Shown: piece after piece, positions 30,193 to 63,198 of the stretch | How positions within the stretch are numbered: the first letter of the stretch is position 1 | Layout of the letters: the number at the start of each line of letters is the position of its first letter | Assembly (NCBI GenBank): GCA_022709525.1 | Contig: JAKLIQ010000004.1 | Span: 9,260 to 73,259 of the forward strand | Direction: 5' to 3' | DNA from: Candidatus Omnitrophota bacterium | Lineage (GTDB): Bacteria; Omnitrophota; Omnitrophia; Omnitrophales; Aquincolibacteriaceae | DNA length: 64,000 nucleotides | The notes under the pieces: model-generated | What the model was told of the DNA's origin: nothing | Databases searched by the model: none | The model's input: only the letters and a program-made list of their open reading frames with translations | Position numbers and translations under genes: made by a program

Positions 30193-30266
30193 GGGCAGTT
30201 AGTTCAGTTGGTTAGAACGCTTCCTTGACATGGAAGAGGTCAGAGGTTCGACTCCTCTACTGCCCA
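30193..30266 (+). tRNA. tRNA-Val (anticodon GAC); no encoded CCA
   Basis: Acceptor GGGCAGT/ACTGCCC, D-arm, anticodon stem CTTCC/GGAAG with loop TTGACAT, and T-arm AGAGG-TTCGACT-CCTCT. Confidence 0.9.
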
Positions 30267-38479: not shown

Positions 38480-38680
38480 GCCTAAGTGTGCCTTTTTGGC
38501 TCAAATTACTATATTAATTGATAGTAATTGATATATATATTTATAAAATATAGCTATATAAAATATATTAAAATATATTGAGTTTCAATATTGACAAATG
38601 ATTATGCATGGGCTAGGGTTTTGTTGGGAAGTAATAGAAGTGGTTTTTGAAATAATAAAATTTCAAGCATAGGAGACAGA
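38480..38680 (+). promoter_or_regulatory. Strongly AT-rich (roughly 20-25% GC) intergenic block containing TTGACA at about 38594 and multiple (AT)n / A-tract runs. It is the likely promoter/regulatory region and the left border of a compositional island.
   Basis: TAATTGATATATATATTTATAAAATATAGCTATATAAAATATATTAAAATATATTGAGTTTCAATATTGACAAATG, against a ~57% GC background. Confidence 0.5.
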
Positions 38681-38683
38681 GAA

Positions 38684-38857
38684 ATGACACATGACCTATA
38701 CGCGATTCGAAGCGCCAAACTGAACGGAAGAGGCGGCCCTCTTGCGCTCTGCGTGATGCACCACGGCGATCTGCTTTCGGGGTATATCTCGCCCAAGATC
38801 CATCGGGGGTTCCGCCGGGCCGAACGCTTCAGAAAGAGGAAGATGCGCTATGAATAA
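38684..38857 (+). CDS. Possible small leader ORF (57 aa) overlapping the start of the STAS-PilZ gene by 8 nt
   Basis: RBS AGGAGACAGAGAA plus ATG. It is GC-rich coding-like sequence, with no homology recognised. Confidence 0.3.
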   Translation: MTHDLYAIRSAKLNGRGGPLALCVMHHGDLLSGYISPKIHRGFRRAERFRKRKMRYE

Positions 38858-39590
38858 ATTTCACTACTCAACGCGGGAGATCGGAGGGGTTGCGGTCTTT
38901 GACCTCAAAGGCGCTCCGACCTTTGAATCTGTCCAGGAAGTGGCCTGGAAGATCCAGAAGAATATCCGGCGCCATCATTTCCATCAGATCATCCTGAACT
39001 TCAAGGAGGCGGGGCCGATGGACACCATCGAGCTCAGGCGGTTACTTACCGTCTGTATCCGCCCCAAGCACAGCGTGATCTATGGGGCGTCGCCGGACAT
39101 GGCCCATTTTCTCGAGGAGAACTGCTTCTCCGGGAAAGTGGACATCTGCGCGGACGAGAAGGAAGTGGCCGAAAGCTTCGGTCCGTTCCTTTTCGATAAG
39201 GATCCCGACAAGAGGTATCTCGATAAGGGGGCGAAGACCACGCGAGAATCGCTCGGCTATCAGCTGGAGAGCCGGCGCAGCCATCGCATGCACGTGGCCA
39301 TACCCCTGGAGCTCCGGATCACAAGTCCGCAGAACGAGATCGTGACGACGAAAGCCATCGCCACCAATATCAGCGAAGGCGGCATGTTCGTCGAATATCT
39401 CGATCTTGAGTCCGCGGGCAAGATCACACGTATGGAGCCAGTCGAGAACCTCCCCGTCGAGATTCATATTTTTAAGAGCGCGAATTTCCCTGACGAGTAC
39501 CATGTAGCGGGGAGGATCCGCCGCAAAGAAATTCGCAAAGAACAGCTTGGTTTGGGCATTGAGTTCCAGGAGAACCTACAGGGTTTATAA
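38850..39590 (+). CDS. STAS-domain / PilZ-domain fusion protein (putative c-di-GMP receptor)
   Basis: The N-terminal ~110 aa resemble an anti-sigma-antagonist fold (VAVFDLKG...HQIILNFKEAGPMDTIELRRLL). The C-terminus has PilZ motifs RRSHR (RxxxR) ... NISEGG (D/NxSxGG). Confidence 0.65.
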   Translation: MNKFHYSTREIGGVAVFDLKGAPTFESVQEVAWKIQKNIRRHHFHQIILNFKEAGPMDTIELRRLLTVCIRPKHSVIYGASPDMAHFLEENCFSGKVDICADEKEVAESFGPFLFDKDPDKRYLDKGAKTTRESLGYQLESRRSHRMHVAIPLELRITSPQNEIVTTKAIATNISEGGMFVEYLDLESAGKITRMEPVENLPVEIHIFKSANFPDEYHVAGRIRRKEIRKEQLGLGIEFQENLQGL

Positions 39591-39766
39591 TGGAAAAGTT
39601 ATATCATGTTATGAATAAAGGGGTTAGGTTGGTTTTAGCGCGTAGGATTTTTTTGTAAGGATTGCGGATAAAAGCTTGATTTTTTCGAGAGATGTGTTAA
39701 ATTTCTTTAAGATTTATTATTGCTTAAAAAAGTATTAATTAATGAGTTTAACAAGGAGGGCAAACG

Positions 39767-42700
39767 ATGCATAAGGGCCTTAGGGCGGTCTCAATAGCCA
39801 CCTTGGTGTGCTTTTTGACGACGCAGTGTGCCTGGGGCGCTCCCGGGGCTTCCATCGAATTAGCTGGGGCGCGCGAGTTGCCCGGCTATCTAAGCATCGA
39901 TGTTCCGGCCGAATTCGGGACCGTTGATGCGCTCTACGAAGCTCCTTCTTCCGCCAACCCTCAATTCGTCCTTCATATCCAGAACGCCCACGCGAATTAT
40001 CAGGCCCAGATGAAGATCAAGCAGCTGCTGGGCTACATGAATAAAAAATACGGCTTCAAAACTATTTTCGTGGAAGGCGCCTCCGAAAAACTCGATCCGG
40101 ATTATCTGCGTCTTTTCCCCGACGAAGAACGCAACCTCAAGCTTTGCGATGAGCTCGCCAAACAGGGAGAGCTTACCGGCGCGGAACTTTATCTGATGGA
40201 GGCGGACAAAGATATCGAAGCGCTCGGCATCGAACAAGCCGCGCTTTATAGATCGAATTATGAAGCGCTCAAAAAAGTATTCGGCGCTGAAGCCGATGTG
40301 AATCGATTTTTCAAAGGGTTTGACGGAAAACTCGACCGCATTGCTTCAAAAACCTTTACGCCCGAAACCCGCGAACTGATCGCGGATTGGAAGCGATTCG
40401 AGCAGGGCCGCCGGGAATTCATGCCGTTTGTCAAATCTCTCGCCCAGAAATCCAAGAAGATCCTGAACGTCGATCTTGAAAGCCTCTTTGCGCAAGTTGG
40501 CTGGCCGCAGATCACGCGCCTGTTGGTGGTCCAGCAGATGGAAAAAGAGCTGGACCGGGCCAAAGGTGTCGCCGAAAAAGAGACGCTTCTTAAAGCCCTT
40601 CGCGAGAAGGGGGCTTCCAAAGAGCTTATCGCGGCGGTCGAGAATTTCAGCGAAGGCTCCATCAGCGTCGGAAAGTCCACGCAGGAAGTTTCGCCGCGCG
40701 AGGTGCTCGAGCGGCTTGCTTCGGAAATGGGCCCCAAAGGCTTTAAATTCAGCGATTATCCCGCGTTCAGTCTTTATGCCGGTTACGTGACCCTCCGTTT
40801 CGAGCTCGATGCAAAAGTCCTCTTCGAAGAGATCGAATACCTTTTTACGCAGATACTCGATACTCTGGCGACAGAGCCTCAGCAAAAAACGCTTTTGGCT
40901 CTTTACCGGGATGGCGAGCTTTTGCGTAAATTGCTCCATCTTGAACTCAACCGGACGCAGTGGCGTGAAGTATCCACGGCTCAGGACCGGATCGCGGTTC
41001 CGTCACTTGTTGCACGCCTCAAAGCGGCGGTGCAGACCACAGACCGCAGACCACAGACTACTGACCAAAGCAAAAAAGATTCTGAGCTCCAGTCTCCAGT
41101 CTCCAGTCTCCAGTCTGTTGGCGATGTCATGCCTCCCGCATTCGCCAAAAAAATGGGTGAGATCTTTAACGCCGGAATCGAGTTCTATGGGTTTGCCCGT
41201 CAGCGCGAAAGTGTTTTCTATAAAGAGATGCAGACGGCGATGAGCGAGCGGAGGATCACGAAAGCCGTTCTTATCACCGGCGGTTTCCACACCGACGGCA
41301 TGAGCGACCTTTTCCGTGAGAACGCCGTCAGTTACGGCATCGTCACCCCGCGTCTTTCCGAAAGATCCAACGAAGGCCTCTATCGCCGCATTATGTTCCA
41401 GGATGAACATGTGCCTTTTAATCTGTCTTATTTAGAAGCGGCTCCTCATTTAGCCGACCTTGCCACGATTGAAAATCAGGGCCTTGTTCCGCTAGATAGT
41501 CTCAAGCCGATTCTTAAACAATTTATCGATGTCGGAAATTTCGGAAATCTTAACGAAGCTGCTATCGCAGCGTTTAATGCCATTACTACCGGTCCAAGAT
41601 ATAACGGCGTCAAAGTCACGCTCGAGCTGCGAGGGGATTATGTCAAAGTGAATGTCGTGGAAAAAGCGATCGAAGGTGGCGTTGCAATTGAATTCGGGTC
41701 GATGGCCCAAATGGCAACTCCGGAAGTTGCTGTTGCAAGGCAAGTGGCGCCTACTACACGTGCTTCTTCGCTCTGGAATTCATTGATGATCGGTTTGAGC
41801 TTATTTCTCGCAGCTCTCAATGGGTATGCGCAGGATGCCGGAGAATTTGTGGAATCATTTCTTTTGAATGGCCGGCCAGCGGCTCTTTATATTGTTAATA
41901 ATGATTACACCGGTGTTGAGAAAACGACGAATTTCTATAAATCCTGGGTAGCGACAACCCCAAAAACTTTAATGAAGGGCGATGCTGCCGTAGCGCTTGT
42001 TGAAGGAAATGGAATACGTTTAGGTTCAACCGGAGAGGTGGCTGTTGCAAGCGCCAAAACATCTGAGCCCGGATCTGACACGCAGAAGATGACGGCGCCC
42101 CTTGTGACCGAAACGGCGCTTTCTACGATTGAGATTGATACTACGCAAATTCCTGACTATATCGCAAATGAGATAGTTGGGAGGACCGGGAGCAACGTTG
42201 TTCAAATTTTTGACCCGAAGACAGGATCTTTTACGCCAGTCGCATTAACTCCTAAGTCTAGAGGCAAGAGAGGTCGCTCCGAGCTAAGAAAGATCATCCC
42301 CGTTGTGATCGCTGCTGCGCTTACCGCTAGCGCAGTTTTGGCTCAAGAATTAGCCAAAACTGCCACAGCAAAAGAAACGCAAAAGAAAGAATTTGTAGCC
42401 CCAGAAGTTAAAGAGCAGCCGATTCCCGTTGCTGCTGACGGAACGGTTAAGGTTCCTCAAGATCCAGAAAAAAATACGGATTATTATTTTATAGTGGGTG
42501 ATACCAAATTTGTTTTGTATTTAAATGATCCCAAACAGATCATCATTCATCCGGAAAGCGCCCCGGAAGATAATATGGGCTTTCCATACGAAAGCATTCG
42601 CATTTCAAAAAAGGATGTCGTAGGTTTAAAAGTTTCAACTGATGTAAGAACCGGACATCTTTTTGGTATTGGAAATGGGACCTTTAATATCGTTGTTCCC

Positions 42701-45700
42701 CTTTTAACCGATGGAACGACAGGTAGGCCCAAGGAAGCTCCCGCAACACGTCGTAAATTTGGAAGCGGCTATGCCGCTGCTAGGATGACGATGTTTCAGA
42801 CTTTGTTTTTGGTCGGGCTAATTAATTTCATGTCGGCAATAACAGTCAAAGCCCAAGATGCCGGAGAGTTTTTGGAGACTTTTCTTATGAATGGTAAGCC
42901 GAGAGCTGCTTTTATAGTCAATAGAGATTACACTCGCGTTGAATCAACTACGAACTACGTCTCATGGCAGGGCCAAACTCCTAATTATCCTTTGATGGCG
43001 GGGCAAGGCGGAGTTGTGCCTATCTCGGGAAATGCAATACGTTTGGCTTCAACCAGTGAGGTAGCAGCTGCAAAGTCGGCATCTCGACTTGCTACCGATT
43101 CAACTTCAAAAGCGATATTTGATCCCACTCGAGTTCCTGCCGACATCAGAGATAAATTTCTTGGAGCTGGCGCAACCGTTGTGCAAATTTTTGATGAAAA
43201 CACCGGAACATTTACGCCGATATCCTTGGTTCCAGTAGCCCCTGAAGAAGCAGCTGCTCCGGAAGCTGCCACGGCAGAGCCCGGCCTTGAAACACCCGTA
43301 GAGCCGGTCGGAATGGATGCCGAAAGGATTAGCACAGCTATTGATGAGATGGCTGTAGAAGAAATGCCTAGCAATATTACTTTGTCCGCCGAAGGCGATG
43401 CTTTAAGCGTTAATGTGTCTGTCCCCACTTCGGATTTTGGAAATCCTGTGATCCGGCCGCTACTGATTTCGCCGGTGCTTGCATTTGCCGCTTATGAAGG
43501 CGCGCTTTACGTGGTAGAGAGAAACGGGGTTTTTGACAAGTTTACTTCAGAAAACGTTTTGGTCGAACCTGTCAGCGAAGAGACGCCCATTACAGATGGA
43601 CGCTTTCAAATTCCTTTCGAAGAACTTCCTGAAGATCTTCAAAAGGAATGGTCCGGTTTTCGCTCCGAGGCGCGAGATGAAATTTCTCAATTAATCAAAG
43701 ATTCTGAAGCTTTCTTGGATTCGGAAGAGATAGAATCTCTTTTAGAACTTTGGGTCGAAACGGGTGACATCAGCAAGGTGTTAGAGTCATTACAAAAAAT
43801 GAAAGAAGATCCTGTGCCAGCCGTAACAAGTTTTGTGCCTATTTTGGCGGGGGTGGCGGGGAGTCTGGTCGCGGCCTTCATGTTGTTCCATCTTATATTT
43901 TCTGGTGCAATGCTTCATTCTGCTATATCAAGTCTAGGAACCACCGGACCAATAATGTTTGTTGGCGTGACGTCGATATTTGCAGGAGTGTGGCTGGGGG
44001 CAAAAGCCGCCGTAGAAACAATGGATAATAATACTCAGATCAGGGAACTAAGTGAAAAAATCCGGGAAACGCATCGCTTCGAAAAAGATGTCCCATTCGC
44101 GAATCTTAAACCGATATCCGGGGATACTCGTGAGATATTGAGAGATAAGCTAAACAAAATCAATGTGGTTATACGCGAACTTCTTGAAAAATATGAATCA
44201 AGGGATAATCTTCCAGAGGTTGAACGTCAATCCGTTTTGCCGGAATTGGCGCAAGCCCGAAACATTCACACTTCGATCTTGGAAGCTCTCAGCCGCTCCG
44301 AGGCGAGGGAATTGCCGGAAGAAACGCGGTCGCAGGTAACGCAAGGGTTAAAAGAACGTTCGCGAAGCACTGTCTTATATGTAACCCAAGCATGGCTAAA
44401 TGCTTCACAAGGGTTAGTGGAGTTTCTTCGAAGCACTGCGCAGTATACGGTTCGGGGCCCATGGGTCGTGATGTCTGTGTTGGCTGTTCTCGGCGCCGTC
44501 TTTATAGGCCCCGCATTTTTACTGATGGCGCTTCCCGTCTTGGTAGCAAGTATGTTGGCTCCGATTGCCGATCGTCTAACGCCTCAGCGAGCGCCTGCCG
44601 TCGTTCTCGATGAAGGGAATACCGTGCCGGCAACAACCTTTGCTCAGCTGGGATCGGCGGCCCAGACTATTATGCAGCCCATTTTTGGGTCAATGGCCAG
44701 GATGCCGGAGATCGTTGCAAGCCGAGAAGCTGTATGGAACGCGGTTAGCCGGCTTTATAATACGAATGAAAGGCAATATCCCTCCATCGAGGTGGTTGTG
44801 GTCAATGAAGGCATTCCTGATTTTAAGCAACAATATGCCGCAGGCCTATTTAGTGAACTAGAAAAACGCTTAGCGGAATTAGAAAACCAATCGCCGAAAA
44901 TTTACTCGATCCAATTTTTACCTGATGTCGACGGAAAAGCGTCGATCCGGGTTAACGTTTCTCCCCGCGCCGAGGCGAGATTGACCGATATGGACAAGGC
45001 CACTCTCAATATAGCGCTAGGTCGCGTTGCCACGGATAGAAACTTTAGCCGTTCTCTTCAACAAAAGGCCGGCGAATTAGCAAAAAAGCTGGATTCACCG
45101 GAGGGCATTTCAGAAGCCGAGTTAGCTGCCCAAATCGAAGGATTGCTTGCAACGATGCCGCGTGGTTTTACCTCAGATAATCAAATGCGACTACCCAACC
45201 CATGGTATGACCTGTTATCCAACGTCTTGGGCAAAATTGATCCCACAGCTACGGATCGTTTAATTCGTCCTTTTGCGATCGAACCCGGTCCGACTATGCC
45301 CGCCCTCGCCGAGGCGAGAGAGGTGCTTACAGCGGCTGATCTGCGGATGCTTTATATGAGCCGCGGCGGTGAACAGGATTATCGAGATGGAGTTGCTAAG
45401 TTTCATGATAGAGCTGATGCAGTAACGGGGCTTATTCCTCAGGGGGATACGGTTGCGGAACTTTCAAAGTTTACTGTTTACCCGGAAATGCAGTCGCTTT
45501 TCATCAACAAGATGAGATTGATTTTGGGGATGCTGCCCGGCGGCCTCGATGTTAGCGGCAGAAAGATTCTTTCGATTGGTCTCGGGGAAGGATCTTTTGA
45601 GAAAGCTATAAAAGATGAATTTCAGGCGCAGATATCAGGTTTTGAAATCTCAAAGGAGCTCGCCGCGCGCGCGCGTACAAAAGGCATCCAGGTTTCGGAA

Positions 45701-48403
45701 GAGCCCGCGGAGATCGGCATGCCAAAGTTGCCGGCCGCGTCGCAAGATGTTGTTTTGATCTCTGAGGCGATCGGATATTTGGATCTATCCGTAGTTTTCG
45801 CTGAAGCATATCGCGTTTTAAAACCGGGAGGGATGATCTTGATAGTACAATACCCCGTAACGTCCCAAAATGCGGGGAATATTTCGCCGACAGGGTTTAT
45901 TGACTACCCCTTCGACGATACGGTGACAGAAAATGGAGCAGTGGTCCAAGGGTACAAAATGGACCTAACAAACCTTCGTTTTGAGAACCCGAGTACTATC
46001 GCTCTAACAAGCCAGGAAGTTAAGAAGAAGGAGGAAGATGAAGGAATAACTTCGGATTGGTTTAAATATTTTAAGCGTGACGTTGTGGTTAATTTTCATT
46101 CTATGCAAAAGCCCGCCCGCGCCGAGGCGAGGACAGTATCCCCGCAACTGCTGGTGGTTGCGGCAAACGAGCGGCTCAGAAACGGAAATGTACCGCTTGC
46201 CGAACAAATGCCGTGGCTTACTGAGGAAGTGGGGTTTGGGAACAGATCTCAAGACCAACAGGAAGCAATATTAACTCGGATATTGTGGCTTAGAGAAAGA
46301 TCGGAGAATATCGAGAAGGTTCTTGCAAAACAGGATACGCCTCCTTCCGAAAGAGATTCTTTAACGCGTCTTTTTCAGAATTTTCAAAGCGAGCAAGTTT
46401 CCCTTGAATCCCGTCTTCCTCAGGGAGTGCTGGCCGCGCTTAATGTTGTTCGCGCCGAGGCGAGAATTCTTTCTGTAAAAGAAATTAATGAGGCAATCGA
46501 AGAGCACACGAGGAAAGTTCGCATTTTAACAATCGCTCCAAATGGGTCCAAAGTTTATACGGAGCCTTTTGAGGTTTCTTCGGCGGCAGCAGGAGCAACA
46601 GAAGGAACAAAAGACTTAATCCTATTTCGTTTAGCAAAATATGGTCGAGAGACCGGTGAAATTCGAAGTTTTCCTTCCGGAGAAATTTTGGGCATTGTGA
46701 GCGGATGGACCATGGAGACGCTGCGTGTTTATGATATTTCGCAGAAGCTTTTGTCGGAAAATCCTGAGTCGGAACTTTATATTGAAACCTACAAGCCGGT
46801 AAACGGGGGATATTTTGCAGATGTGAGATCGGGCAAGGTTAGATCGCTCGAATTTAATCCTGACAGTGGCTGGCTGACCGTTATTTGGGCCGATGGAGAT
46901 AAAAGTTTTTATCATGATACAGACCAACCTATTGCCGACACCGTGAGAACGTTGCCCTCAACGCAGGTTCCGATTCGCGCCGGGGCGAGGGGGCAAGCGA
47001 TTATCCTTGACGAGGGAAATGCCATTACACCAGAAAGTTTAAAAGTCATTTTAGAAACGGCTGGAAGCAACAATGTTACCTTATCTCAAGGACAGGTTTC
47101 TTATTCAGCGCCTGCAACCTCAGTAAGGGCGCAGTTAGATTTATTGAAGCCAAAAGGTCCTTTGACGCAAGCGGAGGTCATCAAGCTTTTGAATCTTGCT
47201 TCGGCTCGCGCGGACTTTGGAGTGGATCGGCCAAGTTCTTTTCCCGCTGATCTGAGCCCCGCAGTTTTCCAGAGGAGGGCGCCGGTCGTTCTTGATCCGG
47301 CCAACATCACTTCAGCAACGAGTTTAAAAATTGTATTAGAGGCAGCAGGAAATGCAGATGTGACATTATCTCAAGGAGAAGTGTCCTATTCGGCGCCAGC
47401 AACCTCAGTTCGGGAGCAATTGGATTTATTGGGAGCAAAAGGCCCTCTAACGCAGGAACAGATAATTAAATTATGGAATCTCGCATCGCCCCGCGCCGAG
47501 GCGAGGTCGATCGTGCAAGAGCGGCAGGATCTTGAAAAAGAGGTAGAAAATATTTTGTCTCAGGAGTATCCCGAGGAACTTCAAAAACTAAAGGAAAAAG
47601 CTTTGGAATTCGGCCTCGGGTCGCTCGATGAGGTTTTTGCGTATATTACGATACCAAGCTCTGGGGAAATGACGGCCAGGGGAGTGGTGGATAATCTGTT
47701 ACGTCTTGTTCAGGCCAAGCCGGGTGAAGTCAATTGGAAACATTTCTTCGCTGCGGCAATAGCTGCTCTTAAAGGTAATCCAATGATGGCGGTGTCCGAT
47801 ACTCCCGGCGGCACTGTGATCATGCGGGCTGCGGCGTTTGATTCAGTTGAACTTGAAAGTATGGCAACACGCCTCGAGACGAACACAGAATTAGTGGAAG
47901 GATATGTCATTCCCAGCGATGGCTCCGGGATAGATCAAGATAAGATCAGAGCCGATATTAATCGCATCAAGAACACTTTTGATCATAAGGGCCGTAAGAT
48001 CGGCGATCGTCTCAATGTTCAATTTGAAAAAGCTTCCAAGCTTTCCGAAAAGGCTCGAGCTCAAGCCGCAGCCATCAAGCGCGCGAATTCCATGAAAGAA
48101 AATTTTGCTGTGGCATTCCTGGTTGAAGAAGGTATCCAGACTACGGGTCAGTTCAACGGCACGGTTCTGCGCACCCAAGAAAAAGCAGCGAGGCAGAATG
48201 CGCCCGTGCGCAGTTGGCTTGCTTCCATGGTCGCGTTGAACGGCGTCGATCAGGTGAACCAATTGTTATTTAAACAATTGAATGACAGAAATGTTCTTAA
48301 ACCGAAAGGCGATGGGTACGAGATCGATGAAGCTTTGCTCAGTGGCCTCGCCAAGCTCTGGTCGGATATCTTGACCCAAAAAGCCACTTCAATCGCAGCA
48401 TAA
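39767..48403 (+). CDS. Giant (2878 aa) secreted/membrane multidomain protein of unknown function. It has a signal peptide, a TraB/GumN/Tiki-like N-terminal region (inference), two sets of tandem internal repeat modules, two TM clusters, and an embedded class I SAM-dependent methyltransferase domain.
   Basis: Signal peptide MHKGLRAVSIATLVCFLTTQCAWGAP. HIQNAHANY...IFVEGASE and ...LITGGFHTDG resemble the TraB/Tiki GTxH...E...GxxH motifs. Module A is at nt ~41828-42250 and ~42850-43235 (AQDAGEF..SFL.NG.P...VVQIFD..TG.FTP). Module B is at nt ~46996-47210 and ~47282-47505 (..LDEGN.ITPESLK..LE.AG...VTLSQG.VSYSAPATSVR.QLDLL...GPLTQ), with a partial copy at ~44596. TM clusters are at nt ~43815-44020 and ~44455-44580. 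MTase motifs ILSIGLGEGSFE / DVVLISEAIGYL / LKPGGMILIV are at nt ~45480-45900. GC content of the gene is lower than in neighbouring genes. Confidence 0.8.
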   Translation: MHKGLRAVSIATLVCFLTTQCAWGAPGASIELAGARELPGYLSIDVPAEFGTVDALYEAPSSANPQFVLHIQNAHANYQAQMKIKQLLGYMNKKYGFKTIFVEGASEKLDPDYLRLFPDEERNLKLCDELAKQGELTGAELYLMEADKDIEALGIEQAALYRSNYEALKKVFGAEADVNRFFKGFDGKLDRIASKTFTPETRELIADWKRFEQGRREFMPFVKSLAQKSKKILNVDLESLFAQVGWPQITRLLVVQQMEKELDRAKGVAEKETLLKALREKGASKELIAAVENFSEGSISVGKSTQEVSPREVLERLASEMGPKGFKFSDYPAFSLYAGYVTLRFELDAKVLFEEIEYLFTQILDTLATEPQQKTLLALYRDGELLRKLLHLELNRTQWREVSTAQDRIAVPSLVARLKAAVQTTDRRPQTTDQSKKDSELQSPVSSLQSVGDVMPPAFAKKMGEIFNAGIEFYGFARQRESVFYKEMQTAMSERRITKAVLITGGFHTDGMSDLFRENAVSYGIVTPRLSERSNEGLYRRIMFQDEHVPFNLSYLEAAPHLADLATIENQGLVPLDSLKPILKQFIDVGNFGNLNEAAIAAFNAITTGPRYNGVKVTLELRGDYVKVNVVEKAIEGGVAIEFGSMAQMATPEVAVARQVAPTTRASSLWNSLMIGLSLFLAALNGYAQDAGEFVESFLLNGRPAALYIVNNDYTGVEKTTNFYKSWVATTPKTLMKGDAAVALVEGNGIRLGSTGEVAVASAKTSEPGSDTQKMTAPLVTETALSTIEIDTTQIPDYIANEIVGRTGSNVVQIFDPKTGSFTPVALTPKSRGKRGRSELRKIIPVVIAAALTASAVLAQELAKTATAKETQKKEFVAPEVKEQPIPVAADGTVKVPQDPEKNTDYYFIVGDTKFVLYLNDPKQIIIHPESAPEDNMGFPYESIRISKKDVVGLKVSTDVRTGHLFGIGNGTFNIVVPLLTDGTTGRPKEAPATRRKFGSGYAAARMTMFQTLFLVGLINFMSAITVKAQDAGEFLETFLMNGKPRAAFIVNRDYTRVESTTNYVSWQGQTPNYPLMAGQGGVVPISGNAIRLASTSEVAAAKSASRLATDSTSKAIFDPTRVPADIRDKFLGAGATVVQIFDENTGTFTPISLVPVAPEEAAAPEAATAEPGLETPVEPVGMDAERISTAIDEMAVEEMPSNITLSAEGDALSVNVSVPTSDFGNPVIRPLLISPVLAFAAYEGALYVVERNGVFDKFTSENVLVEPVSEETPITDGRFQIPFEELPEDLQKEWSGFRSEARDEISQLIKDSEAFLDSEEIESLLELWVETGDISKVLESLQKMKEDPVPAVTSFVPILAGVAGSLVAAFMLFHLIFSGAMLHSAISSLGTTGPIMFVGVTSIFAGVWLGAKAAVETMDNNTQIRELSEKIRETHRFEKDVPFANLKPISGDTREILRDKLNKINVVIRELLEKYESRDNLPEVERQSVLPELAQARNIHTSILEALSRSEARELPEETRSQVTQGLKERSRSTVLYVTQAWLNASQGLVEFLRSTAQYTVRGPWVVMSVLAVLGAVFIGPAFLLMALPVLVASMLAPIADRLTPQRAPAVVLDEGNTVPATTFAQLGSAAQTIMQPIFGSMARMPEIVASREAVWNAVSRLYNTNERQYPSIEVVVVNEGIPDFKQQYAAGLFSELEKRLAELENQSPKIYSIQFLPDVDGKASIRVNVSPRAEARLTDMDKATLNIALGRVATDRNFSRSLQQKAGELAKKLDSPEGISEAELAAQIEGLLATMPRGFTSDNQMRLPNPWYDLLSNVLGKIDPTATDRLIRPFAIEPGPTMPALAEAREVLTAADLRMLYMSRGGEQDYRDGVAKFHDRADAVTGLIPQGDTVAELSKFTVYPEMQSLFINKMRLILGMLPGGLDVSGRKILSIGLGEGSFEKAIKDEFQAQISGFEISKELAARARTKGIQVSEEPAEIGMPKLPAASQDVVLISEAIGYLDLSVVFAEAYRVLKPGGMILIVQYPVTSQNAGNISPTGFIDYPFDDTVTENGAVVQGYKMDLTNLRFENPSTIALTSQEVKKKEEDEGITSDWFKYFKRDVVVNFHSMQKPARAEARTVSPQLLVVAANERLRNGNVPLAEQMPWLTEEVGFGNRSQDQQEAILTRILWLRERSENIEKVLAKQDTPPSERDSLTRLFQNFQSEQVSLESRLPQGVLAALNVVRAEARILSVKEINEAIEEHTRKVRILTIAPNGSKVYTEPFEVSSAAAGATEGTKDLILFRLAKYGRETGEIRSFPSGEILGIVSGWTMETLRVYDISQKLLSENPESELYIETYKPVNGGYFADVRSGKVRSLEFNPDSGWLTVIWADGDKSFYHDTDQPIADTVRTLPSTQVPIRAGARGQAIILDEGNAITPESLKVILETAGSNNVTLSQGQVSYSAPATSVRAQLDLLKPKGPLTQAEVIKLLNLASARADFGVDRPSSFPADLSPAVFQRRAPVVLDPANITSATSLKIVLEAAGNADVTLSQGEVSYSAPATSVREQLDLLGAKGPLTQEQIIKLWNLASPRAEARSIVQERQDLEKEVENILSQEYPEELQKLKEKALEFGLGSLDEVFAYITIPSSGEMTARGVVDNLLRLVQAKPGEVNWKHFFAAAIAALKGNPMMAVSDTPGGTVIMRAAAFDSVELESMATRLETNTELVEGYVIPSDGSGIDQDKIRADINRIKNTFDHKGRKIGDRLNVQFEKASKLSEKARAQAAAIKRANSMKENFAVAFLVEEGIQTTGQFNGTVLRTQEKAARQNAPVRSWLASMVALNGVDQVNQLLFKQLNDRNVLKPKGDGYEIDEALLSGLAKLWSDILTQKATSIAA

Positions 48404-48414
48404 GGCTTGATTTC

Positions 48415-48456
48415 CAAAAAGAGGGGTATGGAGCTTTCCATACCCCTCTTTTTTGT
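48415..48456 (+). terminator. Intrinsic terminator after the giant gene
   Basis: AAAAAGAGGGGTATGG-AGCTTT-CCATACCCCTC followed by TTTTTTG. Confidence 0.85.
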
Positions 48457-48496: not shown

Positions 48497-48524
48497 CCCT
48501 TGTACACACCCGGTGTGTACATTG
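48497..48524. repeat. Degenerate REP copy (CCCTTGTACACACCCGGTGTGTACATTG)
   Basis: Same family as 33900, with 3 mismatches. Confidence 0.8.
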
Positions 48525-48585
48525 TCGATAAATATATAAAATATTTACTTTAAATAATAATCATGTAGACTGTCTCCGCCGATAC

Positions 48586-48611
48586 CGCGGACACACCCGG
48601 TGTGGACAGGG
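48586..48611. repeat. Degenerate REP copy (CGCGGACACACCCGGTGTGGACAGGG) immediately 5' of the RAYT gene
   Basis: Same family. Confidence 0.8.
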
Positions 48612-48630
48612 TTTGAAAGGAGGGGAGAGC

Positions 48631-49278
48631 ATGGGATATCGAAAGGTCGCGTTAAAGACCGGGTGTCTTCATCATGTTTTTTCGAGGAGCATTGCGGGAT
48701 TTGAGATTTTCCGCTTTCGTGAAGAATATCTGAGAATGATGGAGACTCTCAAATTTTATCAAGTCGACAGGAGTGGAATCCGCTTTTCGAGAAAAAGCGC
48801 CGCTGACATTCAAAATTCATCGCATCCTAAGCCGGAGTTTCCCCATGTCCGGCTTATTGCATATTGCATCATGTCTACTCATGTTCATTTTATGCTTGAA
48901 CAGGTTATGGATGACGGGATCTCGAAATTTATGCGGTTAGTTCTTAACAGCTACGCCCGATATTTTAATACGAAAAGTGGTCGAAAGGGGCCGCTCTGGG
49001 AGTCGAGATTTGAAAATCGCCTTATTGAAACGGATGAATATGCGCTTCATCTTTCTCGATATATTCATCTCAACCCAACTTCTGCGGGGCTTGTGACGCG
49101 TCCCGAGGATTGGGAATTCTCATCCTATCTCGAATATCTGGGGGAAAACTCCGGCTCCCCACTTTGTGAATTCAAAAACGTCGTTTCCCTTTCGCCGGAA
49201 CTCTATAGGAAATTCACGGAGGACCGAAGCGATTATCAACGCGCGCTGCAGATGCTCAAAGCCCATCTGATCGATTGA
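48631..49278 (+). mobile_element. REP-associated tyrosine transposase (RAYT; IS200/IS605-like HuH Y1 transposase). The longest ORF starts at 48613; ATG 48631 with RBS AGGAGGGGAG is the more likely start.
   Basis: HuH motif (MSTHVHFML), catalytic Tyr region (LSRYIHLNPTSAGLV), and about 215 aa. It is flanked on both sides by REP palindromes (48586-48611 and 49280-49306). Confidence 0.85.
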
Positions 49279-49279
49279 A

Positions 49280-49306
49280 CCCTGTACACACCGGGTGTGT
49301 ACAGGG
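49280..49306. repeat. REP element (full 27-mer, CCGGG-core orientation) immediately 3' of the RAYT gene
   Basis: CCCTGTACACACCGGGTGTGTACAGGG. Confidence 0.9.
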
Positions 49307-57928: not shown

Positions 57929-57999
57929 GCGGGATTAGTACAATGGTAGTACAACAGCTTCCCAAGCTGTGGACACGGGTTCGATTCCCGTATCCCGCT
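57929..57999 (+). tRNA. tRNA-Gly (anticodon CCC)
   Basis: Acceptor GCGGGAT/ATCCCGC, anticodon stem ACAGC/GCTGT with loop TTCCCAA, and T-arm ACGGG-TTCGATT-CCCGT. Confidence 0.85.
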
Positions 58000-58674: not shown

Positions 58675-61600
58675 ATGCGCGAATTCGGGCTTTACCATCC
58701 CAGTCTAGAACATGACGCTTGCGGCGTAGGATTCGTCGTTAAGGTCGACGGAACACGCTCGCATCAGATCGTCCGCGACGGGGTCCAGATCCTTAAAAAC
58801 CTTGTCCACCGCGGGGCGGTCGGCGGCGATCTGAAAACAGGGGATGGCGCCGGGATCATTCTTCAGATCCCGCATAAATTTTTCACCAGGTCTTCGAAAT
58901 TCCAGTTGCCCGCCGAGGGCCAATACGGCGTCGGAATGTTGTTCCTGCCTCAGCAGGAGAATGATGCCGAGCAGGCGAGGAAAATGATCGCCGAACAAAC
59001 GGCCAAGGAAGGCGGAAAAGTCCTTGGGTGGCGGGAAGTCCCGGTCCATCCGGATTGCTTGGGGGATATGGCCCGCGCCGCCATGCCGTCGATCTGGCAG
59101 GTGTTTGTCAGCTTCAAGGGGCTTCAAGGGGCCGGACTTGAGCGCCGACTTTATATTCTCCGAAAAGTTCTCGAGAATGAAGCCGTAAGGCTCGGCTGGA
59201 AACTAGAAGATTTTTACATTCCCTCGCTTTCCGCCCGGACGATCGTCTACAAAGGCATGTTTGCGGCGCCGCAGTTCGATCAGTTTTTCCCCGATCTTTT
59301 GGACCCTGAATTTGTCAGCGCCCTCGCGGTCGTCCACCAGCGTTATTCCACCAACACTTTCCCGTCATGGCCGCTCGCACATCCGTTCCATTTTATCGCG
59401 CATAACGGGGAGATCAATACGCTGCGCGGCAACATCAACAAGATGGCCGCTCGGGAGGTTCGGATCTCGTCGGAGCTTTTCGGCGACGAGATCAAAAAAC
59501 TGCTTCCGATCGTCAACCCTTCTTTGAGCGACTCCGGCATTTTTGACAATGTTTTTGAACTTTTAACGATGGGCGGACGGTCCATGGAACACGCCATGAT
59601 GATGATGGTTCCCGAGGCGTTCGGCGTGAAATACCACATCAGCGAAGCAAAACGCGCGTTCTTCGAATATCACTCCGCGATCATGGAGCCGTGGGACGGG
59701 CCCGCGGTCGTTGCCTTTACGGACGGAACGAAGGTCGGCGCGATCCTGGACCGCAACGGCCTCCGGCCGGCGCGTTACATTATTACCAAAAGCGGGCTGG
59801 TGATCATGGCCTCCGAAGTAGGTGTCTTGGACCTTAACCCGCCGGATGTGCTTGAAAAAGGCATGCTCTCGCCGGGGAAAATGCTTGTGGTCGATACCGC
59901 TTCGAACCGGGTGATCAAGGATAATGAGATCAAATCGGCGATCGCCCGCCACCGCCCTTACCGCCGCTGGCTTGAAGAGAACCGGATCGAGCTTCGGGGG
60001 TTGCTTCAGGTCCCCGGACCGGTAGAGATCGACCAGAAGACTCTCGCACTCCGCCAGCGTATTTTTGGCTACACGCTGGAAGACGAAAAAATGATCCTGC
60101 TTCCCATGGCCGAGAACGCGCAGGAACCTGTCGGGTCGATGGGTAACGACGCCCCGCTGGCGGTCCTTTCGAAGCGGCCGCAGCTTCTGTATGATTATTT
60201 CCGCCAGCTTTTTGCCCAGGTAACCAATCCGCCGATCGATCCTTATCGCGAGAATCTTGTCATGTCCCTTATGAGTTTTGTGGGACGGCAGGGCAATCTG
60301 CTCGATGAAACACCGGAGCACTGCCATCAGTTGAAATTATCGCATCCCGTGCTTACCAATGATGACATTGAGCGTCTTAAATCCTCCAATCTTGCCAGTT
60401 ACCGCGTCGCGACCGTTCCGATGTTTTTCAGCCCGAAGGACCCTCAGGATGGTCTTGAAATAGCCATTCAAAGACTTTGCGAAAATGTTGAGCAAAAACT
60501 TGATGAAGGGAATTCGCTCGTGATCATGAGCGATCGGGAGGTTGGGCCGGACAAAGCTCCGATCCCCGCGCTTTTGGCCACGGCCGCGGTGCATCAATAT
60601 CTCATCAAAAAGGGGAAGCGTTTCTTGGGAGGGCTCGCGCTGGAAACGGGCGAAGCGCGGGAGGTGCATCATTTTGCCTGCCTGATCGGATACGGGATCA
60701 ATGCCATCAACCCTTATCTTGTCTTTGAAACGCTCGCGGAGCTTGAAAAACGCGGGCATTTTTCAAAAGGATTAGCGCTTGAAACGGCCATTGAGAACTA
60801 TATTACCGCTATCAAAAAAGGCCTCTTGAAAGTCATGTCCAAGATGGGCATTTCTACGATCCGGAGCTATCGCGGCGCGCAGATCTTTGAGGCGGTTGGT
60901 CTTCATCCGGAATTTATCGAGCAATATTTTCCCGGGACCTCATCGCGTATCGGCGGGATCGGCCGGGAAGGCGTTGAGCGTGAGGCGCTTGCTCGGTTCA
61001 CGGCTGCTTTTGAGTTTCCGCGGGCCAATACCGAGACTCTGGACCCCGGCGGCAAGTACCATTACCGGAGCGATGCGGAAAAACATTTATTCTCCCCGCA
61101 AGCGATCGTCAATCTTCAAAAGGCGGTCCGGGAAGGGGATTACGCGGTCTTCAAACGCTATTCTTCCGAAATCAACGATATCAGCAAAAATCTTTGCACG
61201 CTCCGGGGCCTGTTTCAATTCAAGAAAGGTCATCCGGTTCCGATCGAGGAAGTGGAACCGGAGGATTCCATCGTGAAACGCTTTGTTTCTTCTGCGATGT
61301 CCTTCGGCTCGATCAGTAAAGAAACGCACGAAACCATCGCGATCGCGATGAACCGCCTTGGCGCGGCGAGCAATTCCGGCGAGGGCGGCGAAGACGAATC
61401 CCGCTATGTTCCGTTGCCGAACGGGGATTCCAGCAAGAGCATGATCAAGCAGGTGGCTTCGGCCCGCTTCGGTGTGACGATCTCTTATTTGGCTAATTCG
61501 AAAGAACTTCAGATCAAGATGGCGCAGGGCGCAAAGCCCGGGGAAGGCGGACAGCTGCCGGGGCATAAGGTCGATGAAACGATCGCAAGGGTCCGTCACT

Positions 61601-63198
61601 CGACACCCGGCGTTATGTTGATATCGCCACCGCCCCATCACGACATTTATTCGATCGAAGATTTGGCGCAGCTTATTTTTGATCTTAAAAACGCGAATCC
61701 GGAAGCCCGTGTCTCGGTTAAATTAGTTTCCGAACTAGGCGTGGGAACCGTGGCCGCGGGTGTCGCCAAGGGAAAAGCCGATATGGTCCTGATCAGCGGC
61801 CATGACGGCGGGACCGGCGCATCGCCCATTTCGTCGATCAAATACGCTGGGTCTCCATGGGAGATCGGGCTCGCCGAAACGCAGCAGGTGCTTATTATGA
61901 ACAAATTACGCGACCGCATTCGTGTTCAAGTGGACGGCCAGATCAAGACCGGACGGGATGTGGTCATCGGCGCCATGCTGGGCGCGGAGGAATTCGGGTT
62001 TGGCACCGCGTCGGTCGTGACGCTGGGCTGCATCATGATGAGAAAATGCCATCTCAACACGTGCCCCGTGGGGGTTGCGACGCAAAATCCCGAATTAAGA
62101 AAGCGTTTTGCCGGCAAACCCGAACATTTGATGAATTTCATGAAATTCGTAGCCCGCGAGGTCCGCGAGATCATGGCGGAGCTCGGATTCAGGAAATTTG
62201 ACGATATGATCGGCCGCGTCGACAGGATTGAAACGCTCGAGGCCGTCGAACACTATAAAGCCCAGGGGCTTGATTTCTCAAAAGTCCTGACGCCCCCCGA
62301 AGTTCCTTCCGGCGAAGCCGTTCGCTGCGTCACGCAACAAACGCATGATCTTTCATTTTCCCTTGATCCCGACTTGGTAAAAAAAGCTAAAGCGGCAATC
62401 GAATTCAAACAGCCCACTGTTCTCGAGCAGAAAATAAAGAACTGCAACCGAACGGTTGGAGCGACCCTAAGCTACGAGATCGCCAAACGCTACGGCCTTA
62501 AGGGGCTTCCGGAGGATACGATCCGCGTTAAGTTCGAGGGTTCCGCCGGGCAAAGCTTCGGCGCATTCCTCGCGCATGGGGTCATCTTCGAGCTTGAAGG
62601 GGACGCGAACGATTATTTCGGAAAAGGACTTTCCGGCGGACGGCTTATTGTTTACCCGCCGCGGTCGGCGACTTTCCGACCCCAGGATAACGTCATTACC
62701 GGAAACGTCAATCTTTTTGGCGCAACAGGCGGTGAGGCTTACATTCATGGCCGCGCTGGTATGCGATTCTGTGTCCGCAATAGCGGCGCTCTGGCGGTAG
62801 TCGAGGGTGTGGGCGATCACGGCTGCGAATACATGACGGGCGGACGCGTGATCATCCTGGGGCAGACCGGCGTGAATTTTGCGGCCGGTATGAGCGGCGG
62901 GATCGCTTACGTGCTCGATGAGAATCAGCTTTTTGATACCCGGTGCAATCTTGAAATGGTCGACCTGGAACCTGTGGTCGAAAAAGAGGACAGGGAATTT
63001 CTCAAAACGACGATCGAACGGCACGTGAAGCTCACGGGAAGCCAGCATGCCAAATCGATCCTGGCGAGTTGGGATGAAATGCTGCCACGATTCGTCAAGG
63101 TTATGCCGACGGATTACAAGAAAGCCATGGCGCGCATCAAGGAGCGCCAGATCAAGGGTTCGGAGTCGGCGGAAATGACGGAGGAGGTCTTCCTCTAA
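58675..63198 (+). CDS. gltB: Glutamate synthase large subunit
   Basis: N-terminal amidotransferase CGVGFV, FMN and 4Fe-4S central domains, and the C-terminal GXGXG domain; 1507 aa. Confidence 0.95.

Follow-up and report, generated by a model that had tools for sequence, protein, structure and literature searches.

The giant proteins of Omnitrophota are a recognised puzzle. In two preprints they are described as carrying methyltransferase domains, many transmembrane (TM) helices and signal peptides, with pilZ genes nearby, and the methyltransferase domain PF08241 is the most frequent Pfam domain of their module 1 (10.1101/2023.11.21.568195; 10.64898/2026.06.07.730766). Three papers on giant open reading frames (ORFs) of this phylum report about one TM helix per 370 amino acids (aa), topologies that combine a signal peptide with TM helices, a pilZ gene beside most giant genes, embedded methyltransferase, HATPase_c, NUDIX, LOG and TPR/HEAT domains, and N-terminal regions without annotation. 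In this literature the proteins are poorly conserved and largely unannotated, with no known cleavage points, and their proteolytic processing is suspected and unproven (10.1101/2023.11.21.568195; 10.64898/2026.06.07.730766). The subject of this report is a mid-sized, tractable relative, the 2878-aa product of a giant ORF in a 64,000-nucleotide (nt) window, which is the whole stretch of DNA that was analysed, from contig JAKLIQ010000004.1 of the Candidatus Omnitrophota bacterium assembly GCA_022709525.1. Because the two preprints apply length cut-offs of 10 or 30 thousand aa (10.1101/2023.11.21.568195; 10.64898/2026.06.07.730766), a protein of 2.9 thousand aa lies outside those surveys.

The Archaeovorin-type giants (West-Roberts 2023) share with this protein the phylum, a signal peptide with scattered TM helices, embedded enzymes of cytoplasmic type and a nearby pilZ gene. 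The giant's family likewise contains several domains of their repertoire (HATPase_c, TPR/HEAT, NUDIX and Lysine_decarbox). The combination of numerous TM regions, embedded enzymes of GT, methyltransferase, NUDIX or peptidase type, pilZ and Omnitrophota origin that characterises them is found here, with one enzyme domain only. In contrast to the Archaeovorin length of at least 30,000 aa, the giant has 2878 aa, and it gives no Pfam matches to the SecA DEAD or preprotein-binding domains or to the N-terminal C39 or S8 domains of that type (West-Roberts 2023); SecA_DEAD is present in one member of its family (P0071). Its pilZ gene lies upstream, is fused to a STAS domain and is preceded by a small ORF, unlike the arrangement at Archaeovorin-type loci, and its neighbours are housekeeping genes, whereas those of Archaeovorin-type genes belong to type II secretion system (T2SS)/pilus or glycoside hydrolase functions. 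In design, and in the range of cargo that its family carries, the giant is a variant of the described Omnitrophota giant proteins. An earlier note on this DNA, made by a model from the letters alone, had taken the combination for an undescribed system; that view falls, since giant multi-enzyme membrane proteins of Omnitrophota with a neighbouring pilZ are already the subject of the two preprints. The papers on Omnitrophota giants make no mention of a TraB/esterase-like head, of a conserved tail, of a core form of about 1000 aa, of hypervariability at a syntenic site or of the pentapeptide motif described below.

MARTX toxins and viral polyproteins provide a second comparison, one of design and not of homology. 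In these proteins, as here, conserved ends enclose a mosaic middle of enzymes with short sites between the modules. The features that define MARTX toxins, namely RTX repeats, the cysteine protease domain (CPD, Peptidase_C80) and a type I secretion system (T1SS) operon, are all absent from the locus according to Pfam and the neighbouring genes. The TM hairpins of the giant are a difference from both MARTX toxins and viral polyproteins, and processing is here a proposal.

Head, tail and mosaic middle

The giant protein is composed of a conserved N-terminal domain (the head), a conserved C-terminal domain (the tail) and, between them, a cargo made up of two types of beta-rich module, a pair of TM hairpins and a single class I S-adenosylmethionine (SAM)-dependent methyltransferase. 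It is punctuated by a pentapeptide, R[S/A]E[A/L]R, termed RSExR below. Its gene and parts are as follows.

39767-48403, +: giant ORF, 2878 aa
39767-39838, +: N-terminal signal-peptide-like segment, aa 1-24 (MHKGLR, a hydrophobic core and AWG|AP), from the sequence, the AlphaFold2 (AF2) model and the family consensus
39893-41566, +: conserved N-terminal domain (head), aa ~43-600
41759-42247, +: module A copy 1, aa 665-827, opening with a signal-peptide-like segment at aa 666-684
42275-42289, +: RSExR motif 1, RSELR, aa 837-841, with a signal-peptide-like segment at aa 840-858 directly after it
42782-43228, +: module A copy 2, aa 1006-1154, opening with a signal-peptide-like segment at aa 1007-1027
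43661-43675, +: RSExR motif 2, RSEAR, aa 1299-1303
43832-44014, +: TM cluster 1, two helices, aa 1356-1416
44294-44308, +: RSExR motif 3, RSEAR, aa 1510-1514
44459-44596, +: TM cluster 2, aa ~1565-1610, probably a helical hairpin
44966-44980, +: RSExR motif 4, RAEAR, aa 1734-1738
45554-45856, +: class I SAM-dependent methyltransferase domain, aa 1930-2030, motif I ILSIGLGEG
46118-46132, +: RSExR motif 5, RAEAR, aa 2118-2122
46451-46465, +: RSExR motif 6, RAEAR, aa 2229-2233
46988-47500, +: module B, two copies, aa 2408-2483 and 2503-2578
47492-47506, +: RSExR motif 7, RAEAR, aa 2576-2580, exactly where the C-terminal domain begins
47507-48400, +: conserved C-terminal domain (tail), aa 2581-2878, Rossmann-like alpha/beta, ending ATSIAA-COOH

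The giant is identical to a protein of a public Omnitrophota metagenome-assembled genome (MAG) that occurs on two independent contigs, so the giant ORF is not an assembly artefact. The sole annotation of the public record is ‘class I SAM-dependent methyltransferase [Candidatus Omnitrophota bacterium]’. The methyltransferase is also the only Pfam domain in the giant (Methyltransf_11 over aa 1935-2026, E = 2e-11, covering the full model 1-95; Methyltransf_25, E = 7e-9), and methyltransferases of the Protein Data Bank (PDB) match it at E = 5e-5 in a sequence search. With its predicted Rossmann-like fold and GxGxG motif I it is, by these marks, a class I SAM-dependent enzyme, as the earlier note had proposed. 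A signal-like N-terminus and the two mid-protein TM clusters of that note are borne out as well. Hydrophobicity analysis finds about 8 hydrophobic segments in 2878 aa. They comprise a signal-like helix at the N-terminus, the two TM pairs and, not singled out in the earlier note, three isolated signal-peptide-like segments (aa 666-684, 840-858 and 1007-1027). The N-terminal helix and these three, the first four segments along the chain, each have a K/R-rich N-terminal flank and a V-x-A|Q-like end. A lipoprotein signal (no lipobox) and a Tat signal (no RR-x-F-L-K motif) were ruled out. Both of the duplications that had been described as tandem module families are real, with the copies of module A (aa 665-827 and 1006-1154) 45–50% identical and those of module B (aa 2408-2483 and 2503-2578) 63% identical; the A copies lie about 180 aa apart and are thus not strictly tandem.

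The head defines a family. Among 119 homologues, similarity is confined to aa 1-~600 of the giant and always falls at the homologue's own N-terminus; 12 of them also match aa ~2576-2878, always at the extreme C-terminus. A phmmer search with the head returned 7324 clusters at 50% identity, 5354 of them at E ≤ 1e-10, with proteins of up to about 7500 aa, and among the 150 best hits listed the match is N-terminal with about 4 exceptions. Species genomes of GTDB hold at least 509 loci, and among the 80 loci listed every named record is Omnitrophota and the remaining ones are labelled ‘uncultured bacterium’ MAGs. Individual MAGs carry 3–4 or more paralogues, some of them in tandem (L006, 1-5850 and 6001-17952; L041/L053 on DAOSLF010000001.1). 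Other paralogue groups occupy different conserved sites without PilZ. At one such site the order is uvrD–X–acyltransferase–Exo_endo_phos, in which X ranges from 998–1014 aa (P0161 and P0133, both full-length, contig-internal genes) to 2197 aa (P0026). On the evidence of these searches the family is very large, Omnitrophota-wide and apparently undescribed, and the giant gene is its locus-specific paralogue.

A profile of the C-terminal domain places the tail directly after the head in members of about 1000 aa, and head plus tail are therefore taken as the family core. Giants look like such cores expanded by inserted cargo. The middles of family members contain, by Pfam, receiver, HATPase_c, TPR/HEAT/WD40, protein kinase, HPr, CMP kinase, PRTase, NUDIX, Fic, LOG, TIM barrel, SecA_DEAD and methyltransferase domains. 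Head, tail and core proteins match no Pfam or NCBIfam model. For P0005 and P0020, a precomputed annotation lists PF26157.1, which is absent from the local Pfam run and might be a recent DUF that spans part of the family. The C-terminus is [A/S]-A-COOH in 161 of 229 family proteins (P0001-P0230), often after an amphipathic helix, and reads ...KATSIAA (48383-48400) in the giant. This ending may be a recognition tag, as it resembles the non-polar C-terminal tags of Prc/Ctp-type or ClpX-type proteases.

The loci of the closest homologues, including four other Omnitrophota assemblies (L002-L005), were compared for gene order. On the 5′ side the shared order is L20, pheS, pheT, rarA/mgsA, an ORF of 55–57 aa, a STAS-PilZ gene (243–246 aa) and the giant gene (2878–3716 aa). 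The giant is followed by DUF1844, an LPG-synthase-like membrane protein, dehydroquinase II, BCCP, biotin carboxylase and PFK, and in some syntenic loci and not in others also by a gene of the REP-associated tyrosine transposase (RAYT) type. Flanking proteins are 77–86% identical in the four other MAGs. Against L002, identity is 86% for RarA, 84% for STAS-PilZ, 73% for the small ORF and 77% for the LPG-synthase-like protein; for the giant itself it is 68–75% over the first ~600 aa and 44% over the last ~300 aa, and the middle ~1900 aa show no similarity at E < 1e-5.

What fills the middle differs from one orthologous locus to the next: ARMT1-like, AP-endonuclease-2 and cNMP-binding domains in P0007, a receiver domain in P0018 and no embedded Pfam domain in P0002. 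In a permissive comparison, a relative of module B follows the head in P0006 and a relative of module A follows it in P0018, while the module at aa 1686-1813 of the giant forms tandem repeats in P0002. Because conserved neighbours stand beside unalignable middles whose modules are reused elsewhere, the locus is best read as a stable chromosomal site that holds a gene with a mosaic, rapidly turning over middle. The locus had been described beforehand as an island. It is not a genomic island, since L002-L005 all carry the three-gene unit of small ORF, STAS-PilZ gene and giant gene at this site, within a conserved housekeeping neighbourhood, and only the giant's middle turns over.

The head is likely, but not proven, to be a TIKI/TraB/erythromycin-esterase-like hydrolase domain. 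Its AF2 model (aa 1-640, from an alignment of 34 sequences) has a mean predicted local distance difference test (pLDDT) score of 83.6 and a predicted template modelling (pTM) score of 0.78. The model shows a helix at aa 3-23 within the signal-like segment, which is conserved in the family consensus, a disordered linker (aa 24-41), an alpha/beta core with strands at aa 44-72, 99-102, 151-154, 499-504 and 522-528, and a small C-terminal subdomain; the core is split by a helical insertion of about 330 aa (aa 158-495). The alpha+beta fold with a parallel beta-sheet core that typifies TIKI, TraB, EreA and ChaN proteins is thus present in the model. Invariant across the family are H75, Q81, E103, E156, Y161, Y474, R480, G505, G506, H508 and P528. 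H75 follows strand 1 and E103 stands at the end of strand 2, with a spacing of 28 residues, which is also the spacing of the catalytic His-Glu pairs H85/E113 in Bcr135 and H3902/E3930 in RRSP. GGFH508 forms a GxxH motif behind a strand. Of the residues that may correspond to a 2His/2Glu motif, H75, E103 and H508 are invariant, and the position of the first Glu of RRSP (E3900) is Asn73 in the head. Perfect DNA tandem repeats (14 bp x1.9; 7 bp x4.3) were observed at 41032-41116, in a variable loop of the head (aa ~422-450) that is modelled with low confidence.

The likeness to TraB/GumN/Tiki proteins that the earlier note saw in this region therefore holds at the level of fold and motif, being supported by the fold, the His/Glu spacing and the GxxH motif. 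It does not extend to a match in sequence models or Foldseek. No Pfam or NCBIfam match at E ≤ 1 was obtained to TraB, Erythro_esteras, ChaN/Cofac_haem_bdg or GumN, an alignment profile of the N-domain against PDB sequences returned coiled-coil noise only and no TIKI/TraB-type family, and a Foldseek search of PDB with the whole N-domain model gave long-helix noise, with 2rad at rank 30 (E = 1.9). With the TIKI/TraB/PrgY/GumN/erythromycin-esterase/ChaN/RRSP superfamily the head shares the alpha/beta core, the parallel sheet, the His after strand 1 and the Glu after strand 2; it differs in its helical insertion and in the family-specific invariant residues Q81, E156 and R480. Its substrate could be a peptide or an ester. 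The model of the tail has a moderate pLDDT of 72.8 and is good for model aa ~105-300. It shows a generic three-layer alpha/beta fold, without a specific fold match in the structure search.

The RSExR motif

The seven copies of RSExR in the giant begin at aa 837, 1299, 1510, 1734, 2118, 2229 and 2576. The corresponding DNA pattern occurs seven times against 0.5 expected, always in frame in the giant ORF, and is absent from the window's intergenic DNA, other frames and opposite strand. Outside the giant ORF, a six-frame translation of the window gives only two matches to the peptide, once in a tRNA gene and once in an antisense frame. Across 120 family proteins, R[S/A]ExR occurs 471 times compared to 6.2 in shuffled sequences, with flanking positions that are not conserved. 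It is found in 87 of the 120, mostly in 2–14 copies, and reaches 18 copies in the larger proteins found by phmmer.

RSExR never falls inside the head, its first copy usually coming soon behind it, typically at aa 560-760, and it lies outside the Pfam domains checked. The tail starts right after a canonical RSExR in the giant and in 7 of 12 aligned homologues, with the variant RYEMR in one further homologue. Where modules are repeated in tandem the motif keeps step with them, at intervals of 69 aa in P0036 and 97 aa in P0002. Core members of about 1000 aa have 0–2 copies, between head and tail. A LOG-domain protein of more than 3442 aa encoded upstream of P0040 contains six in-frame copies. RSExR behaves as a short linear motif. 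A role as a phosphosite was ruled out, because 19% of copies, and 4 of the 7 in the giant, have Ala in place of Ser. A text search of the literature for the motif strings found nothing relevant.

The codons of the motif are also unusual. The seven copies in the window all read CGC-KCC-GAG, although in the ORF as a whole CGC accounts for 24% of Arg codons and GAG for 36% of Glu codons. In a wider survey of 197 motif copies from 80 ORFs (loci L008-L088), the consensus across genomes is CGC TCC GAG GTG AGG. The first Arg is CGC/CGT in 80% of copies and AGR in 3.5% (background AGR 23%); Ser is TCC in 55% (background 22%); the last Arg is AGG in 30% and CGC in 11% (background 13% and 25%), and in 73% of copies it is AGR/CGG. 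Synonymous variation nevertheless runs through the motif across genomes (CGC/CGT/CGA/CGG, TCC/TCT/TCG/AGY, and GAA about as often as GAG) while the amino acids remain fixed, which argues that selection acts on the RSExR peptide. As for the bias, it is possible that linker copies spread by duplication or recombination and then decayed, or that an extra constraint acts at the nucleotide level.

Proposed processing and its alternatives

The reading favoured here, in which belief and doubt are about evenly balanced, is that the giant is an envelope-targeted mosaic polyprotein that is processed at RSExR and receives c-di-GMP input through STAS-PilZ. The N-terminal segment would send the product to the Sec pathway and the cell envelope, and cleavage at RSExR would separate head, cargo modules and tail. 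The protease would be the head domain itself or a dedicated protease acting in trans. The TIKI-family enzymes RRSP and Tiki are site-specific endopeptidases, and the head is a candidate protease because these are among its structural relatives. Freed pieces with signal-peptide-like segments of their own, of which there are three internal ones, would carry modules across the membrane, while pieces with TM hairpins would keep the methyltransferase facing the cytoplasm and its supply of SAM. Cargo would be swapped between paralogues and species by recombination, giving the hypervariable middle, and STAS-PilZ, perhaps together with the 57-aa basic protein, would couple assembly, processing or activity to c-di-GMP.

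Processing is favoured because RSExR resembles a recognition site at module boundaries. A single uncleaved chain is disfavoured because four consecutive segments with a predicted N-in/C-out orientation cannot thread one chain. Family-wide, isolated TM segments are N-in in 150 cases versus 70, and consecutive segments that lie far apart have the same orientation in 92 cases versus 78 opposite, while close pairs are opposite in 102 and the same in 30.

Several points weigh against this reading. The topology argument from flanking charges is crude. Thirty-three of the 120 family proteins, mostly distant ones, have cargo and no RSExR, and no substitute punctuation motif was found in them. The putative catalytic residues of the head are invariant also in members that lack RSExR and in core members that lack cargo; since RSExR-less members keep an invariant head, the head has a primary function that does not depend on RSExR and need not be the processing enzyme. 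If exported by way of the signal peptide, moreover, the head could not reach RSExR sites in the cytoplasm. Part of the motif signal may reside at the DNA/RNA level or reflect shared descent, as the position-specific codon bias indicates. Finally, the STAS-PilZ gene travels only with this locus's paralogue.

Less probable, and still the most serious competitor, is an unprocessed single-chain scaffold of the inner membrane, as larger Omnitrophota proteins have been viewed, in which RSExR would be a structural or docking linker, either a helix-capping element or a short linear motif that binds a partner. Long Omnitrophota proteins have been described as having a signal peptide with TM helices or TM helices only, at the density given above, and the giant's hydrophobic segments are similarly sparse. 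The close TM pairs are normal hairpins by their orientation counts, RSExR is predicted, with low confidence, to stand at the start of a helix in the C-domain model, and the protease is so far only a candidate. Against such a scaffold stand the four successive N-in/C-out signal-like segments, which are hard to thread, and the nature of the motif: four fixed positions with random flanks, an enrichment of about 75-fold and invariable placement between modules are more like a recognition or processing site than a passive linker.

It is also conceivable, though unlikely, that RSExR is mainly the footprint or substrate of cassette recombination at its coding DNA, each incoming cargo bringing or duplicating a junction, and that the peptide is tolerated and has no use. 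This would fit the use of CGC-KCC-GAG in 7 of 7 copies despite rarer background codons, the position-specific synonymous bias across the 197 copies, the swapping of middles between orthologous loci and the reuse of modules at other positions. It would also fit the core members, whose 0–2 motifs lie exactly at the head/tail junction, the site of cargo in giants. The combination of synonymous variation with fixed amino acids, however, points to selection on the peptide, the DNA pattern is absent from all other parts of the window, and no recombinase is consistently linked to the family, as RAYT adjoins only some loci.

A secreted effector-delivery system of the MARTX kind, in which head and tail translocate cargo enzymes to a host or prey cell and cleavage at RSExR frees them, is rather improbable. 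The conserved ends, the variable enzyme cargo in the middle and the inter-module sites agree with it, and so does the cargo itself, consisting mostly of cofactor-dependent enzymes of cytoplasmic type behind a signal-like N-terminus. The literature infers a host-dependent or predatory way of life for Omnitrophota and proposes that their giant ORFs act on target cells, and one endopeptidase of the TIKI fold, RRSP, forms part of a MARTX toxin. The locus, however, has no RTX or other glycine-rich repeats, no CPD domain and no T1SS or T2SS genes, and its neighbours are housekeeping genes; the internal TM hairpins point to membrane retention, and the existence of a cargo-less core form means that head and tail serve a purpose apart from any cargo.

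A horizontally acquired island with a novel c-di-GMP-controlled adhesin or modification machine, which the lower GC content, the AT-rich upstream DNA and the RAYT and REP elements downstream had suggested, is very hard to reconcile with the gene order and neighbours shared with four other Omnitrophota MAGs, the scatter of REP through the window, the lack of RAYT in L002 and L003 and the failure of Pfam to detect adhesin domains in the giant protein.

Extended beyond this locus, the polyprotein reading becomes more tentative: RSExR would be the long-sought processing signal of large and giant Omnitrophota proteins, and the family, with its 7000 or more clusters, would consist of bacterial polyproteins with a TIKI-like head and a conserved tail as a chassis for export and processing and exchangeable cargo that is cleaved free and possibly acts on or in host cells, under c-di-GMP control at the present site. 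If true, this would be a chromosomal bacterial polyprotein or effector-cassette system without described precedent and would give an informatic rule for splitting giant proteins into functional units. Should RSExR be a processing site, polyprotein function, segmentation for structure prediction and cargo evolution all become testable. Should it not be, the definition of the family and the correction of the island claim still stand. In either case the family gains a definable chassis, with a TIKI-like head, a Rossmann-like tail and a cargo-less ancestral form of about 1000 aa. Its middle is a mosaic with turnover at a syntenic locus, and the pentapeptide between its modules is sharply defined.

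The STAS-PilZ gene and surrounding DNA

The giant gene is the last of a unit of three genes, which, with the DNA at its borders, is laid out as follows.

38480-38683, +: AT-rich upstream region, a candidate promoter for the small ORF and the STAS-PilZ gene, with weak sigma-70-like matches (sequence read)
38684-38857, +: 57-aa basic ORF with a good ribosome-binding site (RBS), its 3′ end sharing 8 nt with the start of the PilZ gene; called as a gene in all orthologous loci
38850-39590, +: STAS-PilZ gene, 246 aa, with STAS at aa 7-97 and PilZ at aa 141-242 (Pfam, motifs)
39591-39766, +: AT-rich spacer with a promoter-like block CTTGA..TGTGTTA.ATT and the RBS AAGGAGG of the giant gene
48416-48453, strand not assigned: bidirectional intrinsic terminator, a perfect inverted repeat of 17 bp bordered on either side by A/T runs
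48498-49303, +: repetitive extragenic palindromic (REP) sequences at 48498-48521, 48585-48608 and 49280-49303 around a RAYT/Y1_Tnp gene at 48613-49278

Much of the earlier description of this region agrees with the present analysis: the STAS+PilZ fusion, the strong terminator (the perfect 17-bp hairpin), the AT-rich upstream region at 38480-38680 and the lower GC content (0.45–0.52 for the giant gene compared to 0.55–0.59 for its flanks). The locus had been counted as two genes, a number that rises to three with the conserved 57-aa ORF that precedes the PilZ gene. That the STAS-PilZ gene and the giant gene might fail to occur together in relatives had been named beforehand as a possible refutation; the pair is conserved at the orthologous loci.

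In the STAS-PilZ protein, the PilZ domain (PF07238) is matched by Pfam at E = 2.5e-7, above the gathering score. The STAS match is sub-threshold in the window protein (E = 0.0064; 16.7 bits against a gathering score of 22.6), while the model matches all four orthologues, with a best E of 6.1e-6; the STAS region has no PDB sequence match. STAS domains of the SpoIIAA-like type are partner-switching domains. The motifs RRSHR (R142xxxR146) and NISEGG (N173xSxxG178), which correspond to the canonical RxxxR and (D/N)xSxxG motifs of PilZ c-di-GMP receptors, are invariant among the four orthologues. The protein thus carries motifs for c-di-GMP binding that are, by their residues, intact. The upstream 57-aa ORF, highly basic and with the pattern MTHDLY...GDxLSGY...RKRKMRY, is 61–71% identical among orthologous loci, with 25 invariant residues, has no Pfam match and is translationally coupled to the STAS-PilZ gene. 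A STAS-PilZ fusion with a conserved upstream basic ORF of this size was not found in the literature searched.

A promoter-like block, CTTGA-N~17-TGTGTTAxATT, is conserved in the 176-nt spacer between the PilZ and giant genes (window 39660-39730 and the equivalent spacers of L002-L004). The conserved block suggests that the giant gene has its own transcription, so that it may be expressed independently of the two genes upstream.

The stretch at 48498-49303 with its REP sequences and RAYT gene is neighbouring mobile DNA outside the three-gene unit. REP and RAYT elements had been thought to bound the locus, and REP palindromes do flank the RAYT gene downstream; they delimit no island. The 21-bp REP palindrome, TGTACACACCCGGTGTGTACA, occurs at seven intergenic sites in the 64-kb window (33903, 36995, 37027, 48501, 48588, 49283 and 49653), two copies lying between pheT and rarA. 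REP is therefore a repeat scattered over intergenic DNA and does not mark an island border. In three loci, which span two different paralogue groups, a family member has a RAYT (Y1_Tnp) gene immediately on its 3′ side (window 48613-49278; L004, 17392-18048; L007, 12854-13501), and the RAYT gene is absent from the matching spot in L002 and L003. Its position next to family genes may be due to chance or to a preference of REP/RAYT elements for their terminator regions.

Two other long ORFs of the window were considered as family members and ruled out, since 309-3959 encodes a 1216-aa TPR-repeat protein and 58675-63198 the 1507-aa large subunit of glutamate synthase. The window also contains two tRNA genes, at 30193-30266 and 57929-57999.

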